Of a stretch of 64,000 nt of DNA, positions 57,289 through 64,000 are shown in pieces; the first letter of the stretch is position 1, and every line of letters starts with the position of its first letter. The DNA is from Escherichia phage Ec_Makalu_003. The notes under the pieces were generated by a model. It saw only the letters and a program-made list of their open reading frames with translations, was not told the DNA's origin and searched no databases. The stretch is taken from the sequence record MN882349.1, one strand, 5' to 3'. Made by a program: the position numbers and the translations under genes.

Positions 57289-57328
57289 GGAAACTCCCAG
57301 GGAAGGGAACTACTAAGGAGAAACGGCT

Positions 57329-57568
57329 ATGGTCTATAATATCGTCATTGGTGCTTTGTCTAATTTCGGAATGAAATTATTGTCAAAGTTAATTAGTGAA
57401 AAGATGCTCACTAAAATTTTCTTCTATTGCGCTCGTCGTCTTGCGGCTTATACCAATACGCCAATTGATGATCGTTTTGTGGAAGAACTTTATAAGGAGT
57501 TTAATAAAGATCAGTCAGAAGATAGTAACGAGCAAGATAAACCTAGTGATAGTCAACTACCTAAATAA
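57329..57568 (+). CDS. small hypothetical protein (79 aa) at the position T4 uses for gene 38
   Basis: ORF with AAGGAGA RBS; hydrophobic N-terminus, acidic C-terminus; no gp38 similarity. Confidence 0.45.
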   Translation: MVYNIVIGALSNFGMKLLSKLISEKMLTKIFFYCARRLAAYTNTPIDDRFVEELYKEFNKDQSEDSNEQDKPSDSQLPK

Positions 57569-57601
57569 GAGTACACTGTCATAGTTATCTTAGGGCATTA
57601 T

Positions 57602-58258
57602 ATGCAAGTTTCTGAAAAAGGGAAAGACTTTGCTATCTCAAATGTCCTGCGCGCTATTTTCACAACTAAAAGCACGGAGTTGCTCGTACTTCGTGTTTTT
57701 GCTGCCGTCGTGTTGTCCATATTAGCATTTGTCGTTTATAGTAAAAACGAGTTATTCGCGCTTTATAAAGAGACTCGTTATGAGACTTATGCTCACATTC
57801 TCCAGGTAGAGAAAGACCGCAATTTTGATAATGCAGCACAGGAGCAGTTACAGATAGTTCATGTATCGGCTGATGCCGATTTTTCTGCTGTTTTTAGTTT
57901 TCGTCCGAAAAACCTAAACTATTTTGTTGATTTGGTGGCATATGAAGGAAAGCTACCGCATACAATCGATGAAAAAAATTTAGGCGGATTCCCTATCAAT
58001 AAAACGAGTGAAGAATATCGTAGGCATCTTTTAGGTAAATCATATTTTACCGATAAAGATTTCCAGTATATTCCATCAAGAGAAAAGAAATTAGAGAATA
58101 TCGATATAGGTTTCATGTATTCTTGTCCTATATTCAATCTCGATAATGTCTATTCTGGTAGTATCGCCATTTCATGGAAGAATAAACCGGATATTGACAT
58201 TGAGAATTTAGATACTCTTTGCAATCAATCTGCCAGAATCCTCGGAAGGATTAGATAA
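57602..58258 (+). CDS. t: holin t
   Basis: 218 aa alignable to T4 holin T (EQLQIVH.S.DADFSAVFSFRPKNLNYFVD, YMYSCP.FNLDN, ARILGR). Confidence 0.9.
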   Translation: MQVSEKGKDFAISNVLRAIFTTKSTELLVLRVFAAVVLSILAFVVYSKNELFALYKETRYETYAHILQVEKDRNFDNAAQEQLQIVHVSADADFSAVFSFRPKNLNYFVDLVAYEGKLPHTIDEKNLGGFPINKTSEEYRRHLLGKSYFTDKDFQYIPSREKKLENIDIGFMYSCPIFNLDNVYSGSIAISWKNKPDIDIENLDTLCNQSARILGRIR

Positions 58259-58263
58259 ATTAA

Positions 58264-58296
58264 AGGGGAAGCCTTTCGGCCTCCCCTTCTTTTTTA
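58264..58296. terminator. hairpin plus T-run between convergent genes t and 58294-58542
   Basis: GGGGAAGCC...GGCCTCCCC imperfect stem followed by T-run on plus strand. Confidence 0.55.
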
Positions 58297-58542
58297 TTGG
58301 CGCATAGAAGCCCCTGAATCGCATTTTGACGCTGTATGATGAAAACAGGTAGCGTACCAGTCATCGGCTTGTTTGTCTTCGTCAGAAAACGCGTAATTTC
58401 GTTGTATGCCGTTTTCTACTTTGACCAGTGCAATAGCTGTTTCTGGAAGATCAATTAATCTGACAAAATCACCATCTTCCCACTCTACACGAGCAATATC
58501 ATAGCCCATCTCAAAGTATACAATCGCTTGTTCTAGTTTCAT
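58294..58542 (-). CDS. hypothetical protein (82 aa)
   Basis: ORF with RBS; no recognisable AsiA similarity. Confidence 0.5.
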   Translation of the reverse strand: MKLEQAIVYFEMGYDIARVEWEDGDFVRLIDLPETAIALVKVENGIQRNYAFSDEDKQADDWYATCFHHTASKCDSGASMRQ

Positions 58543-58850
58543 TTTGGAAACTTCCCGTAAATGTTTTCTGCCAGCTTACGTGCATCGATGATAATGTCAT
58601 TCATGCTATGCCCGTAGTGTTCAGCCATTGACATAATACAATCAACAAAGAAATTATATCGGCAACGATTCAAGATTTGCTCTTTGCTGTAAACTTCATA
58701 CTTGACGGTCGCGTGTACTTTCTCGATTGCCTTAATCGCTGTATTGACTTCACTGATAATGGTTTTCGCATTGTATGCACCACGACGGATCAGGATTTGA
58801 GTCAATTCTCTTGCAATATCTTGCATTTCTTCATATTCATGTTCAAGCAT
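58539..58850 (-). CDS. hypothetical protein (103 aa)
   Basis: Start MLEHEYEEMQ with GAGAGG RBS; track ORF starts at an upstream TTG. Confidence 0.5.
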   Translation of the reverse strand: MLEHEYEEMQDIARELTQILIRRGAYNAKTIISEVNTAIKAIEKVHATVKYEVYSKEQILNRCRYNFFVDCIMSMAEHYGHSMNDIIIDARKLAENIYGKFPK

Positions 58851-58874
58851 AATTAACCTCTCAAAATACAATAC

Positions 58875-59207
58875 TTACAGATGAAAACCTGTTACGATCA
58901 CCGCGTCGATCATACCGCTAGGGATAAACGGTTCACCCTCTTTTATCTCAACTTTGAATTGATGCCATTTCGCTAATACTTCTTCCGGTACACCCAGCGA
59001 TTCGGCATCTGCTTTAGTTTCATCCATAATCCAGCTAGGCTGCATGAGAGCATAGTTTACATAGTCCATTTCTGGGGTCATGTCATCAATGTTAATATAT
59101 TTGCAGTTGACGCGTTTCAGAATTTCAAATTCTTTTTCATCAACCTGTACCATGTATAATTCAGTAGTTTCTGGAATCAGTTCCCACACAATCAGTACAT
59201 TTTTCAT
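58875..59207 (-). CDS. hypothetical protein (110 aa)
   Basis: ORF with GAGGTG RBS. Confidence 0.55.
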   Translation of the reverse strand: MKNVLIVWELIPETTELYMVQVDEKEFEILKRVNCKYINIDDMTPEMDYVNYALMQPSWIMDETKADAESLGVPEEVLAKWHQFKVEIKEGEPFIPSGMIDAVIVTGFHL

Positions 59208-59215
59208 AGTTCACC

Positions 59216-59584
59216 TCACTTAACAAAGATTTTCTTTAATGCTTTCAGGATCGTTGCTTCCGGCGCTTCTTCCGGTGGAGGAAGCAATTCTACCACTTCC
59301 TCTTCCAACTCGATATAGTCTACCAGATATTCTACATAGAATGCAAGTGCTTCCATGAAATTAGATGCTACATCCGATTCACCACAAGCGCCTACATGCA
59401 TTGTATAAACATCACTGCGATCAAGTTTGTGGATGCTTCCCAGATAGTTCCGGTTATACCAGACTTCCCACACTTTCAGTTTTCCGGTTTTAGTTGCTGT
59501 CTTATAATCTGTTTCGTAGTGGTGCAGTTGACGTTGCAGATCATTGATAATAACACATTTTTCGTAATTGTTTTGAATTTCCAT
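59216..59584 (-). CDS. hypothetical protein (122 aa)
   Basis: ORF with GAGGAT RBS. Confidence 0.55.
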   Translation of the reverse strand: MEIQNNYEKCVIINDLQRQLHHYETDYKTATKTGKLKVWEVWYNRNYLGSIHKLDRSDVYTMHVGACGESDVASNFMEALAFYVEYLVDYIELEEEVVELLPPPEEAPEATILKALKKIFVK

Positions 59585-59594
59585 GATGTAATCC

Positions 59595-59786
59595 TCACTT
59601 ATCGTTAAGAAGTTCTAAAACTTTCTGTCGTACTTTGTCAATATTAGTTGACTCAAATACTGTACGGTATCCCCAACTTTGACCGTATGATCGAGAGCAA
59701 TCCCCGTATCCCCATTGTTCAACCTGATAGTATTCAAGGAATGGGTGTTGCCGAACTATGATACCATCGCGATTAAAAATTACCAT
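59595..59786 (-). CDS. hypothetical protein (63 aa)
   Basis: ORF with GAGGAT RBS. Confidence 0.5.
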   Translation of the reverse strand: MVIFNRDGIIVRQHPFLEYYQVEQWGYGDCSRSYGQSWGYRTVFESTNIDKVRQKVLELLNDK

Positions 59787-59809
59787 AATATAATCCTCAC
59801 GTCAACAAA

Positions 59810-60088
59810 CTATTTTCGGTTATACTTCTGCCACTTTCGGTAATACTGCTTGTAATGTTGTTTAATGTTTGGCGGTTCGTCACTATACATGTTATCAACC
59901 ATCATGTCAATAAGACCCTCCGGTGTTTGATAGCTCCCCGCTCGAATAAGTTCCTTAATTAAAAGATCTTGCGTCGCTTTATACTCTACAATAACAACTG
60001 TCTTTTCTGCCTTTCCAATTCCGATCTGGTCGTTAGCTCTCATAGCATCCCACCAGTCTTTTTTAAACTTCATGTTATTGAATTGCAT
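59810..60088 (-). CDS. hypothetical protein (92 aa)
   Basis: ORF with AAGAGG RBS. Confidence 0.55.
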   Translation of the reverse strand: MQFNNMKFKKDWWDAMRANDQIGIGKAEKTVVIVEYKATQDLLIKELIRAGSYQTPEGLIDMMVDNMYSDEPPNIKQHYKQYYRKWQKYNRK

Positions 60089-60099
60089 AATTTAACCTC

Positions 60100-60858
60100 T
60101 TACTTGCAAACGTATTGATCTACATCAATTGCGCCACCGAATGTAGGATGACGTTTTTCAAATCGAATAGTTCCGTCGTTTGGTTCGAAAACGGAGTATT
60201 CATATAGATCTTTCTTGCCAACATTCTTATAAAACCCGCCTTTAGTCATAACGGTTTCTTGTACGTTTGCTTTGTGTACATTGTATTCATCAATGTACAC
60301 AAAATCAACCATCTTCCCATTTTTAATAGTTACTTTAAGATCCCCTGGCTGGTTTCCATATTTTGCATACAGTGGAGATTCTTTAATTTTGGTGGAAATT
60401 CCATCTTTCATACTCCACTCATAACGAACGGTGCATTGATAGGTAAAAGTTTCGACCTTCGGTTCTTCCACCACTTTTGCTTCCTGTTTCGGTTGTTCTT
60501 CTTCAACCTTCGCAGAAGTCTCTGAATCGCTTTCTGACGCTGTTTCTTCTTTGGGTAATACATTCATCAAGTTTTGGATTTGAGCGTTGTATACAGCCTC
60601 AAGTGGCTGAATCTGCCCTATATTGATCATTGTATCACGAACAGTTTTATTCCAGTTGCGTTGCTCTTGTTTCAGAGACGGATCAATCTTAACAGCCTTA
60701 ACATATACTTCATGAAGTTTAGAATCAAGTGCGGAGATTGACTCGTTAGCACAAATAAACTTCTCTGATTTGGTGGTAGCCTTAGTGCAATCAAAGGACG
60801 CAGCATTAGCACCGATGGCAGTAGCAGAAAGAAAGATAGCAGCGATAATGTTTTTCAT
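60100..60858 (-). CDS. secreted DUF1311 (LprI-like lysozyme inhibitor fold) protein
   Basis: Signal peptide MKNIIAAIFLSATAIGANA; FDCTKA...EKFICANE...LDSKLHEVY...QRNWNK matches the DUF1311 pattern; 252 aa. Confidence 0.6.
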   Translation of the reverse strand: MKNIIAAIFLSATAIGANAASFDCTKATTKSEKFICANESISALDSKLHEVYVKAVKIDPSLKQEQRNWNKTVRDTMINIGQIQPLEAVYNAQIQNLMNVLPKEETASESDSETSAKVEEEQPKQEAKVVEEPKVETFTYQCTVRYEWSMKDGISTKIKESPLYAKYGNQPGDLKVTIKNGKMVDFVYIDEYNVHKANVQETVMTKGGFYKNVGKKDLYEYSVFEPNDGTIRFEKRHPTFGGAIDVDQYVCK

Positions 60859-60892
60859 AATATATTCCTCAATGTCTTGTCTTGATGGGAGT

Positions 60893-60921
60893 ATCTTACT
60901 ACTCCCTTAATCCGGTGTCAA
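60893..60921 (-). promoter_or_regulatory. early promoter cassette (TTGACA-17-TAAGAT)
   Basis: Minus-strand elements upstream of the DUF1311 gene. Confidence 0.6.
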
Positions 60922-60928
60922 CTACTTT

Positions 60929-61084
60929 TTAAATTTCTTCTACAGTAAAGTCTTCAATGTTGTTGTGCTCGGAGAACGTTGCCAGACCAGCATTCCATGC
61001 ATCATCCTCAGAGAAGAATACACCGTAACGTTCATATCCTTTAGCGCCTTCAAATTTAATCATTAATTTGTGAGTATGTTTCAT
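60929..61084 (-). CDS. small hypothetical protein (51 aa)
   Basis: ATG with GGAGAATCAA RBS behind a GGGGATCACCGATCCCC-spacer promoter cassette (about 61110-61146). Confidence 0.4.
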   Translation of the reverse strand: MKHTHKLMIKFEGAKGYERYGVFFSEDDAWNAGLATFSEHNNIEDFTVEEI

Positions 61085-61153
61085 TTTGATTCTCCATCGT
61101 TGTCTTGATGAGTTTAGTATAGGGGATCACCGATCCCCTGTCAACAACTATTT

Positions 61154-61366
61154 TTAATTTTTACCCACGCGTAAATTAATGCGCATTTTCTGCATAGCCA
61201 TGATCTGGTTTACTGCTTCTTCTTTACGCTCTTTCGTGATAATGTGACCAGATTCCGCAAACGCTCCCGCAACTTCTTCTACGATCTCGCGAACTTGAGA
61301 ACGTCCAAAGATGCGATTTCCTTCGTAGCTCATAAACTCGGTTACTACTTGCTCAATAGATTTCAT
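61154..61366 (-). CDS. hypothetical protein (70 aa)
   Basis: ORF with AGGAGAATCA RBS behind promoter cassette. Confidence 0.55.
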   Translation of the reverse strand: MKSIEQVVTEFMSYEGNRIFGRSQVREIVEEVAGAFAESGHIITKERKEEAVNQIMAMQKMRINLRVGKN

Positions 61367-61435
61367 GTGATTCTCCTTCTTTCGTTTCGGTGTGGGAGTA
61401 TGTTAATACTCCCGTTTCTTTACATCAACCAGTTT

Positions 61436-61678
61436 TTAGAAATTTTTCGCTTCTTCTTCGGTCATCATAACCGCGCATTCGTGCATAACTTTGAAAACCG
61501 GATCAATCATGTCGAATGCCTCGCGAGACAATTTACGAGAAGCGATTTTGATTGCTTCAACGTCTTCTACTACAGGAACAAAAACAGTTTTCAGTTCATC
61601 GAGCACAGCAGCTTCTTTTTCATTCAGGAAGATTCCAGCGTCGTACAGTGCAACTTCGATAACATTAACTTTAACCAT
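61436..61678 (-). CDS. hypothetical protein (80 aa)
   Basis: Start MVKVNVIEV with GGAGGAAAT RBS behind TTGACG-17-TATTAT cassette. Confidence 0.55.
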   Translation of the reverse strand: MVKVNVIEVALYDAGIFLNEKEAAVLDELKTVFVPVVEDVEAIKIASRKLSREAFDMIDPVFKVMHECAVMMTEEEAKNF

Positions 61679-61741
61679 TTTTATTTCCTCCAGTTCGTTT
61701 CGGTATGTGAGTATAATACTACCGATGACCTTTGGCGTCAA

Positions 61742-61942
61742 CTAGTTTTTGTTATTTTCGTGAAAATTTTTCGTCGCCTCATGTGCTTTTCGCTGGGCTT
61801 CTTGTTGTGCTTGCTGGCGTGCTGCCTCTTGTGAAGCCATAACGGAAGCATTTGCAGCAGTTACAGCCGCTACCATCGCTGCGGTATTAGCATTTACAGT
61901 ACATGCACTAGCCAGCAAAGCAATTGCAATCATTTTCTTCAT
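61742..61942 (-). CDS. small secreted protein (66 aa)
   Basis: N-terminal signal peptide MKKMIAIALLASACTVNA, Ala/Gln-rich mature part. Confidence 0.5.
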   Translation of the reverse strand: MKKMIAIALLASACTVNANTAAMVAAVTAANASVMASQEAARQQAQQEAQRKAHEATKNFHENNKN

Positions 61943-62109
61943 AGTTTCCCCTTTAGGTTATCTTCGACCTTCATCCATTCCGCGTATTCTTGCGCAGCTA
62001 CTTTCGGATTTAGTCCGTCTTCGTACATTGCATCGAGTAATTCTTCGTCGGTGGGCTTATACCCTAGATAAGCCTCCACCTGATTTTTCCAAATTTTATA
62101 CCAGTTCAT
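61939..62109 (-). CDS. small hypothetical protein (56 aa)
   Basis: Start MNWYKIWKNQ (ATG at 62109); track ORF begins at an upstream TTG. Confidence 0.45.
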   Translation of the reverse strand: MNWYKIWKNQVEAYLGYKPTDEELLDAMYEDGLNPKVAAQEYAEWMKVEDNLKGKL

Positions 62110-62113
62110 ATTA

Positions 62114-62386
62114 TCACCAATCAAGAGCGCGTGTCTCTGCGTCTTCCCATGCTTGATCCATTACAGCCTTAAAAACATACTCTAAGGTATCATCTTTAGA
62201 GAATCCGAAGACTTTAGACGGAATATCTTCGATTGCCACTCCCGCAACTTCTGCATTACGCGCTTGGCAATAATGCAACTCTAAGTTATCGAGATAGCGA
62301 CCGCCTAATTTCTCCATATCGTCCCAACATTTCCAATAACCGACTTTATCGGCAATTGCTAACACTTTGCTGTTTTTGTTGCTCAT
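62114..62386 (-). CDS. hypothetical protein (90 aa)
   Basis: ORF with AAGGAGAATCAA RBS behind promoter cassette. Confidence 0.55.
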   Translation of the reverse strand: MSNKNSKVLAIADKVGYWKCWDDMEKLGGRYLDNLELHYCQARNAEVAGVAIEDIPSKVFGFSKDDTLEYVFKAVMDQAWEDAETRALDW

Positions 62387-62453
62387 CTTTGATTCTCCTT
62401 TTGTTTGGTGTGGGGAGTATTTTACTACTCCCTTGTTCTGGTGTCAATAGACT

Positions 62454-62660
62454 TTATTTGATTATTTCAAATTTTGCTACCGGATCACCATTTCGTTTGG
62501 TTGCAGTAAGTTGTTGCTTGTCAAAGTAAAACCAAATATAGTCACCATGAACTACATCAAATGTATTTCCGCTATTGTCCGTGAATGCATCAACATCATA
62601 ATCACACCCGACACTAAAGCTATAATTGATGTGGTCGGTTTCAATGCAACGTACTTTCAT
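62454..62660 (-). CDS. hypothetical protein (68 aa)
   Basis: Start MKVRCIETDH with GGAGAATCAA RBS. Confidence 0.5.
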   Translation of the reverse strand: MKVRCIETDHINYSFSVGCDYDVDAFTDNSGNTFDVVHGDYIWFYFDKQQLTATKRNGDPVAKFEIIK

Positions 62661-62734
62661 TTTTTGATTCTCCTGTTGTTTCAGTTTGGGTGTATTATGC
62701 AATGTTTGATTATGGGAGTCAACAACTTTTCAAA

Positions 62735-62762
62735 TAAAAAAGCCGACCACAAGGATCGGCTT
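62735..62762 (-). terminator. rho-independent terminator downstream of 62772-63167
   Basis: AGCCGATC...GGTCGGCT hairpin then U-run on minus strand. Confidence 0.6.
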
Positions 62763-62771
62763 AATAATCAA

Positions 62772-63167
62772 TTACTTACTAAATTTCTTTTTGGCTTCGT
62801 CTACTGCATGAGATGCTAGTACCGCTGCCGCATGTGCACTTTTATCTGTGTTACAGAGAACACCCAGATAAACATCACGCCAAAGTTTAATCATCTCGTA
62901 GATCATATCAATATCATTTTCTTGTTTGTTGGCGATGCTATTCGTCGTTATCTGGTAAGGCAACGGTTTGATCTGTACTGGTTCCGCCATCGGGCTAATC
63001 GGTTTCGGATCGGTCATAATAGGTTCTGTTGTCGGTGATGTTTTCCATACGCCATTATCCCACGGTTTAATCGTTGTATCGTACAGTTTATAAGGATTTT
63101 TGTCTGGATTAACCATCCATGCATGATGATTACCCAAACCATTTGCAGTGATGCGTCGTTCAGTCAT
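62772..63167 (-). CDS. hypothetical protein (131 aa)
   Basis: ORF with GAGAGGAAAT RBS. Confidence 0.55.
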   Translation of the reverse strand: MTERRITANGLGNHHAWMVNPDKNPYKLYDTTIKPWDNGVWKTSPTTEPIMTDPKPISPMAEPVQIKPLPYQITTNSIANKQENDIDMIYEMIKLWRDVYLGVLCNTDKSAHAAAVLASHAVDEAKKKFSK

Positions 63168-63170
63168 AAT

Positions 63171-63374
63171 TTATTTCCTCTCTGATAATTCTTTCATCAA
63201 GCTGTCGATCTTTGCTCTGTGTTCTGGCGTGTTTGTCATCTCTGCTAATTTGCTCAGAGATTCACTGGTGATCCGGTTGGATTCTTCCAGTGTTTCAACG
63301 ACCATTGGCACAATCTTTTTATTTTTGTACACAAATGCAATATAACCGCCTTCTGGATACTCTTTCATAATCAA
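63171..63374 (-). CDS. hypothetical protein (67 aa)
   Basis: ORF immediately downstream of the partial gene. Confidence 0.5.
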   Translation of the reverse strand: MIMKEYPEGGYIAFVYKNKKIVPMVVETLEESNRITSESLSKLAEMTNTPEHRAKIDSLMKELSERK

Positions 63375-64000
63375 CCCTTCTTAAGTTCTTTAAGATCTTT
63401 CTTATATTCCTTCATTGCGGTCGTCTTTGTCCAATACTCATATTCACTATGATGTTTATCGGCATCTTTGACCAGTCGATCATACTCTTCTTGGGTAACG
63501 CTGTACAATGGCATAGAAACTAGCTTATCGGCGTATGGACGCAGTTTTTCATGTCCATTGATGGATTGCATTACCTCGGCCTTTTTCTTTCCCTGTAGCT
63601 CGATTTCGCCCTTAATTACGCGATCGATAAATTCTGCTTTAGCCATTGCATAATTGTATGCTTCCAGTGTTTCGGCTTGCATCAATTCAATGCGTTTATC
63701 TACATAGCCTAATCGGATTTCGACGAATCGACGGATCAGATCGCTCGCTTTCTCGAATACTTCAACTAAACCACGTTCGTTAACTACTACGATATTTTGG
63801 GCTACTAACTGCGTTAGTTTAAAATCCTTCATGATTTGCTCATGTCGAGCGGATTCATCTTCGCTTTTGAAATAATCGCGTTTCAGTGTTACTTCAAATC
63901 TGAATCCATCCTTAGAGCAACGGTCATTATACGATACAATCAGATCTTTTTCTTCCAGTGCATCCAGTACCGCTACATATTCTTCACGGTCGAACTTATA
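63371..64000 (-). CDS. 3' part of a larger gene running off the window edge; possibly topoisomerase II subunit gp52
   Basis: Minus-strand frame is open from 64000 straight through the Met at 63832 (...SARHEQIMKDFKL...); coiled-coil-rich C-terminus; T4 has gene 52 beyond t. Confidence 0.4.
   Translation of the reverse strand, partial: YKFDREEYVAVLDALEEKDLIVSYNDRCSKDGFRFEVTLKRDYFKSEDESARHEQIMKDFKLTQLVAQNIVVVNERGLVEVFEKASDLIRRFVEIRLGYVDKRIELMQAETLEAYNYAMAKAEFIDRVIKGEIELQGKKKAEVMQSINGHEKLRPYADKLVSMPLYSVTQEEYDRLVKDADKHHSEYEYWTKTTAMKEYKKDLKELKKG

Follow-up and report, generated by a model that had tools for sequence, protein, structure and literature searches.

How does a T4-like phage organise its early transcription when the genes for the middle-mode factors are missing from the place where T4 keeps them? 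In T4, the interval between the holin gene t and gene 52 houses asiA and motA, as a first-pass annotation had stated and as the gene order of the T4 record (t-asiA-asiA.1-arn-arn.1-4-motA-motA.1-52) bears out. The t-asiA-motA adjacency also occurs in the Acinetobacter phages ZZ1 and Ac42. We analysed the corresponding interval in Escherichia phage Ec_Makalu_003 (MN882349.1), using a 64,000-nucleotide stretch of its genome (the window), and found 16 minus-strand open reading frames (ORFs) of 51-252 amino acids (aa), none of which resembles AsiA or MotA. We interpret the interval, with a probability of roughly 0.9, as the hyperplastic region between t and 52 in a phage of the RB49 type (Krischvirus) that lacks MotA/AsiA sigma appropriation. 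The first-pass annotation had already proposed an RB49-type T4-like lineage without the MotA/AsiA middle mode, and on this point sequence identity to RB49 and Ec_Makalu_002, profile searches, counts of Mot-box sites and the literature all agree. Only its number of small ORFs needs correction: the block of small ORFs stands, but "about 15" becomes 16.

The window derives from a Krischvirus, an RB49-type T4-like coliphage. A megablast search of positions 57300-64000 against 50,697 phage records matched 62 records, exclusively RB49-type phages. The best match was Escherichia phage Ec_Makalu_002 (MN709127.1, Krischvirus gec3s), with 99.6% identity at 100% query coverage, and RB49 matched with 94.9% identity across 93% of the query. 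In 55 of the 62 records at least 80% of the interval is covered at 90-99% identity, with identical flanks. The window corresponds approximately to positions 97710-161709 of the 164,674-bp Makalu_002 genome. It thus represents ~39% of the genome, and the remaining ~100 kb is represented here by Makalu_002 and RB49.

T4 AsiA and MotA are widespread, with tblastn matches in 1173 and 1143 phage records, respectively, and thus their absence from a T4-like genome is informative. AsiA is a sigma-70 region 4 binder of ~90 aa, and MotA combines an N-terminal domain (PF09114) with a double-wing DNA-binding domain (PF09158). The 16 interval ORFs have no matches to the Pfam families AsiA (PF09010), MotA_activ (PF09114) or MotCF (PF09158), and all of their PHROGs matches are to families of unknown function. 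No homolog of AsiA or MotA was identified by tblastn. We also built custom hidden Markov models (HMMs) from ~80 MotA homologs and 13 AsiA sequences, the latter extending to phages of Acinetobacter, Aeromonas, Proteus and Pseudomonas. With every filter disabled, the HMMs were compared with all six-frame stop-to-stop segments of at least 30 aa, first those of the window together with the part of Makalu_002 beyond it (2770 segments) and then those of the complete RB49 genome (2585 segments). Neither set contained a homolog; the top matches, at ~13 bits and E~0.01, were to unrelated proteins, and the same HMMs gave E=4e-44 and E=1.5e-96 on the T4 control. Comparison of the AsiA and MotA profiles with each of the 16 interval ORFs using hhalign returned probabilities of at most 0.6% for AsiA and 4.4% for MotA. 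The view that none of the small ORFs is AsiA- or MotA-like, formed in the first-pass annotation from the letters of the sequence, is therefore upheld by Pfam, PHROGs, custom HMMs and hhalign, and the genome-wide profile search proposed there, run on the window, the rest of Makalu_002 and RB49, agrees with it.

Weak matches to the custom HMMs were inspected individually. The AsiA HMM matched two fragments within the DNA polymerase gene (E=0.014) and, at E=0.14, an ORF of 97 aa that lies upstream of gene 52, and inspection of the alignments gave no support for either. A match of the MotA HMM to a 392-aa protein (13 bits, E=0.007) is restricted to the linker between the MotA domains, and a Pfam scan of the protein shows no MotA domain. 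This conserved hypothetical protein (Makalu_002 L003, 36663-37841) has no Pfam domain, and its weak linker match, which recurs in RB49, is probably due to chance.

A Mot box (TGCTTtA) sits at -30, 11-13 bp before a -10 element, and in the T4 system such boxes are enriched in front of prereplicative genes. The promoter classes were counted and compared with expectations from block shuffles, using TGCTTnA-N11-13-TAnnnT for the Mot type and TTGACA-N16-18-TAnnnT for the sigma-70 type. Mot-type sites occur at chance level in the window (2 sites vs 3.5 expected), are missing from the t-52 interval (0 vs 0.23 expected) and are not enriched in the first 99 kb of Makalu_002 (7 vs ~5.4 expected). The control, T4 1-40 kb, has 13 Mot-type sites (8 on the coding strand) vs 2.6 expected, and gene 45 and uvsX are among the genes preceded by one. 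This piece was taken in place of an earlier control, a 10.9-kb T4 t-rIIB piece, which contained 0 Mot-type sites and was without power.

The sigma-70 type shows the opposite distribution, with 31 sites in the window vs 3.3 expected (~9-fold), 30 of them on the minus (coding) strand, and 1 site in T4 1-40 kb vs 3.0 expected. Perfect TTGACA-N16-18-TATAAT promoters number 8 in the window vs 0.04 expected. The interval carries four TTGACA-N17-TAnnnT sites on its minus strand (62447, 61144, 60921 and 59910) vs 0.23 expected, although the site at 59910 lies within an ORF and may have arisen by chance. A lax sigma-70 scan of the interval gave 21 sites vs 19.6 expected, which is not above chance, and the enrichment is confined to high-scoring, strand-specific, intergenic sites. 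In Makalu_002, TTGACA-type promoters are located upstream of genes 43, rIIA, 39, 45 and uvsX. Strong TTGACA -35 boxes in place of MotA boxes, as described in the first-pass annotation, are thus confirmed for the interval. The observation that it had named as contrary evidence, motA or asiA elsewhere in the genome together with MotA-box promoters, was not made in the sequences searched, where no homolog was found and Mot-type sites stay at chance level.

It could be argued that one of the orphan early proteins, encoded in the interval or elsewhere, is an unrecognisable functional counterpart of AsiA and/or MotA that remodels sigma-70 and defines a different middle class. Fourteen of the 16 interval ORFs lack an assignable function, KVP40 and Aeh1 have AsiA but lack MotA, indicating a modular system (PMC1524935), and other RNA-polymerase modifiers (Srd, RpbA and ModB) are annotated in Makalu_002. 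However, the analysis revealed no further conserved class of promoters: Mot-type sites are at chance level, and the orthologs of T4 middle genes are preceded by promoters of the TTGACA type. Furthermore, no interval ORF rises above the 4.4% hhalign probability, and the sole MotA-sized ORF of the interval bears a signal peptide. We consider it improbable that RB49-type phages have a temporally distinct "middle" programme operated by such a non-homologous sigma-70 remodeller, encoded by an orphan early ORF of this or another hyperplastic region. That motA and asiA are present in this isolate beyond the 64-kb window is very unlikely. The window is only a minor part of the genome, but nothing above ~13 bits was found in the rest of the 99.6%-identical Makalu_002 or in the whole of RB49, and the Makalu_002 regions that were inspected carry no motA or asiA annotation. 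Recent loss by deletion, or an assembly artefact confined to one record, for which we found no supporting evidence, can hardly explain an interval that is common to 62 phage records, most of them with high coverage and the same flanks.

Some points weigh against the interpretation as an RB49-type interval without sigma appropriation. Promoter activity and timing are predicted from sequence, and a non-homologous functional analogue among the orphan early proteins would be beyond the reach of sequence and profile methods. For the ~100 kb of the isolate's genome that were unseen, the lack of motA and asiA is deduced from the 99.6%-identical relative and RB49. Finally, the window contains no match to a strict pattern for an early promoter that physically overlaps a late one (TTGACN-N16-18-TATAAATA); thus, the idea of overlapping early and late promoters from Desplats 2002 is neither reproduced nor refuted by that pattern.

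Based on these results, we anticipate that unmodified host sigma-70 RNA polymerase transcribes the 16 small accessory genes leftward, early in infection. Some six near-consensus TTGACA-N17-TAnnnT promoters would serve as starting points; several of them are embedded in repeated promoter-stem-loop elements (PeSLs). Transcription would terminate at a hairpin common to the convergent holin gene. As the lineage is devoid of the AsiA anti-sigma co-activator, the MotA activator and Mot-box promoters, sigma appropriation of the T4 style would not take place, and genes that are MotA-dependent in T4 (gene 45, uvsX) would use the sigma-70 consensus promoters that they carry here. The repeated PeSLs may also act as recombination points at which promoter-plus-ORF cassettes are swapped among relatives, as suggested by one indel and by the literature. 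According to Hinton and colleagues, as cited in PMC1524935, AsiA binds region 4 of sigma-70. The joint absence of AsiA, MotA and Mot boxes would make sense because AsiA blocks the -35 recognition on which these promoters presumably depend, and AsiA that was either lost or never acquired would fit a reliance on strong -35 elements.

The absence of MotA and AsiA in Krischvirus is already known and is usual for these phages. Nolan 2006 (PMC1524935) described RB49 as lacking a motA ortholog and the middle-promoter consensus, and listed AsiA orthologs for RB69, 44RR, Aeh1 and KVP40 only. Clokie 2010 (PMC2984593) stated that motA and asiA homologues are missing in RB49 and, in a passage citing Desplats 2002, that overlapping early and late promoters are thought to cover middle-mode expression. 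Near-perfect TTGACA-N17-TATAAT promoters in the hyperplastic regions of RB49 and phi1 were reported by Comeau 2014 (PMC4122927), where PeSLs are also described. The lack of sigma appropriation in Krischvirus has been in the literature since 2002-2006, and our result serves mainly as correct annotation and leaves the published picture unchanged. The genus is a natural comparison for a T4-like programme limited to early and late promoters, and also for the shuffling of accessory genes by promoter-stem-loop repeats.

The closest known systems are RB49, phi1 and JSE, which share 93-95% nucleotide identity over the interval, the same flanks, the same near-perfect TTGACA-N17-TATAAT promoters with G-rich stem-loops, and the absence of both motA and asiA. 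T4 has in common with Ec_Makalu_003 the flanking t (49%) and gp52 (43%), the gene orientation, a block of small early ORFs and one arn.4-like ORF. In contrast to Krischvirus, which lacks all of these, T4 has asiA adjoining t, motA three kb beyond and an enrichment of Mot boxes. In the T4-like cyanomyoviruses S-PM2 and Syn9, motA and asiA are likewise reported to be missing and the early promoters to be sigma-70-like (PMC2984593), although their hosts and genomes are distant and the likeness comes from the published description. KVP40 and Aeh1 resemble Krischvirus in lacking MotA (PMC1524935) but, unlike Krischvirus, have retained AsiA.

The flanks of the interval are well defined. The holin gene t (57602-58258, plus strand) encodes 218 aa that match Pfam Phage_holin_T (E=4.5e-61) and are 49% identical to T4 t. 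At the other end, the minus-strand frame 63371-64000 is free of stops to the window edge and is the 3' portion of gene 52, which encodes the topoisomerase II medium subunit, as the first-pass annotation had suspected for gene 52. Its 209 C-terminal codons match Pfam DNA_topoisoIV (E=4e-17) at profile positions 228-422 of 432, corresponding to the C-terminal half, and align to residues 236-442 of T4 gp52 with 43% identity (E=3e-51). The counterpart in Makalu_002 (Makalu002_269) is a gene of 1365 nt annotated as topoisomerase II medium subunit. Between the convergent t and the minus-strand early operon there is a GC-rich hairpin (58262-58289, minus strand; 12-bp stem with 7 GC pairs), which is an annotated terminator in Makalu_002.

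A PeSL joins a stem-loop and a near-consensus sigma-70 promoter to the Shine-Dalgarno sequence and start codon of a small ORF, and 5-6 copies of this unit lie in the interval. Desplats 2002 and Arbiol 2010 reportedly deal with the t-52 region and the PeSL elements of RB49-type phages. All of the following elements are on the minus strand. The first comprises a terminator hairpin (62762-62740) and then a promoter, TTGACT-N17-CATAAT (62722-62694). A PeSL at 62413-62447 has the promoter TTGACA-N17-TAAAAT and the hairpin GGGAGTA-GTAAAA-TACTCCC. It is followed by an early promoter, TTGACG-N17-TATTAT (61713-61741; repeat family D1), and by a degenerate PeSL with TTGATG-N17-TAACAT and a GGGAGTA..TACTCCC hairpin (61394-61428; repeat families D1 and D2). 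The PeSL promoter at 61116-61144 reads TTGACA-GGGGATCGGTGATCCCC-TATACT (N17) and has its hairpin in the spacer. In the last PeSL (60887-60921; repeat family D2), with the promoter TTGACA-N17-TAAGAT and the hairpin GGGAGTA-GTAAGA-TACTCCC, the -10 hexamer is in the loop.

Two classes of hairpin can be distinguished. The class GGGAGTA-N6-TACTCCC, a perfect 7-bp stem whose loop is the -10 hexamer, is located at 62432-62413, 61413-61394, 60906-60887 and 25707-25688. The class GGGGATC-N3-4-GATCCCC is found in the spacer between -35 and -10 at 61138, 27095, 25950, 22668 and 20291; in the interval the hairpin GGGGATCGGTGATCCCC occupies the promoter spacer at 61138-61122, and four more copies of the motif lie elsewhere in the window. 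A repeat finder sorts the promoter units into families D1, D2 and D5.

The positions of these promoters suggest a series of short transcription units. The promoter at 62722 would drive the ORF 62454-62660, and the promoter at 62447 would drive three ORFs, down to 61742. Those at 61741, 61428 and 61144 would each drive a single ORF, and the promoter at 60921 is predicted to drive seven ORFs, as far as the hairpin that is common to t (58289-58262). We identified no promoter of their own for the two ORFs at 62772-63368, nor any between them and gene 52, with which they are presumably co-transcribed.

Differences from RB49 are at the cassette level only. RB49 lacks region 62413-62662, which comprises the 68-aa ORF and its PeSL; the junctions of this cassette fall in the flanking PeSLs (62413-62447 and 62663-62722). 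This PeSL-bounded indel is the cassette-exchange pattern that has been attributed to PeSLs. At the other site, region 58662-58873 in the ORF pair 58539-59207 is replaced in RB49 by 659 unrelated bp.

The ORFs are described here in the direction of transcription. The two that lie immediately downstream of gene 52 encode 65 aa (63171-63368; phrog_15105) and 131 aa (62772-63167; phrog_15644). The 68-aa ORF of the cassette missing from RB49 (62454-62660) belongs to phrog_9122, and it is followed by ORFs of 90 aa (62114-62386), 56 aa (61939-62109) and 66 aa (61742-61942). Further on are an ORF of 80 aa (61436-61678), which is an annotated coding sequence in Makalu_002 and has no PHROG match, and ORFs of 70 aa (61154-61366; phrog_14966) and 51 aa (60929-61084; phrog_19699). 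The unit closest to t begins with a 252-aa ORF (60100-60858; phrog_14799) and continues with ORFs of 92 aa (59810-60088; phrog_15915), 63 aa (59595-59786; phrog_6957), 122 aa (59216-59584; phrog_1594), 110 aa (58875-59207; phrog_4658, unknown function) and 103 aa (58539-58850; phrog_9457, unknown function). The 82-aa ORF 58294-58542 is next to t.

The 82-aa ORF occupies the position of asiA in T4 and is a candidate member of the Tad2-like family DUF2829 (Tad2/AcrIIA7-like). Its match to Pfam PF11195 is a marginal pass (27.9 bits, with a gathering cutoff of 25), and two divergent homologs (P0101 and P0102) are also marginal, at 26.1 and 25.5 bits. The family is tiny, with 8 representatives among 1.84 billion proteins. 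An AlphaFold model based on five sequences (pLDDT, the predicted local distance difference test, of 70.7) was used, and a three-sequence model (pLDDT 59.5) was set aside as too poor. Neither a Foldseek search of the PDB with this model nor sequence searches of the PDB gave a match, and no paper linking Tad2 to RB49 or Krischvirus was found in the literature searched. We tentatively regard the ORF as an anti-defence candidate. If active, it would be a signal sponge, binding a Thoeris signal (gcADPR or His-ADPR), or an anti-CRISPR of a T4-like coliphage encoded at the asiA position of T4, a role that we consider doubtful.

Two ORFs of the interval may encode exported proteins. The 252-aa ORF (60100-60858) is the only large ORF of the interval, and its translation has a hydrophobic N-terminus. 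It has a signal peptide and an N-terminal domain that resembles the lysozyme inhibitor LprI/DUF1311 (Pfam LprI, E=1e-5), and the product is probably periplasmic. The translation of the 66-aa ORF 61742-61942 also has a signal peptide, an N-terminal signal-like stretch ending in LLASAC, and it has a Gln/Ala-rich tail. This ORF has neither a PHROG nor a Pfam match, and it may encode a lipoprotein or a small protein that is secreted.

Part of the interval is truly orthologous to that of T4, based on the homology of the 122-aa ORF (59216-59584) to the arn.4 region. It matches T4 (L002, 4712-4897; tblastn E=3e-6) in a segment overlapping arn.4, just downstream of motA. The similarity reaches ~60 nt upstream of the annotated start of T4 arn.4, and thus the T4 gene may extend beyond its annotation or be a remnant.

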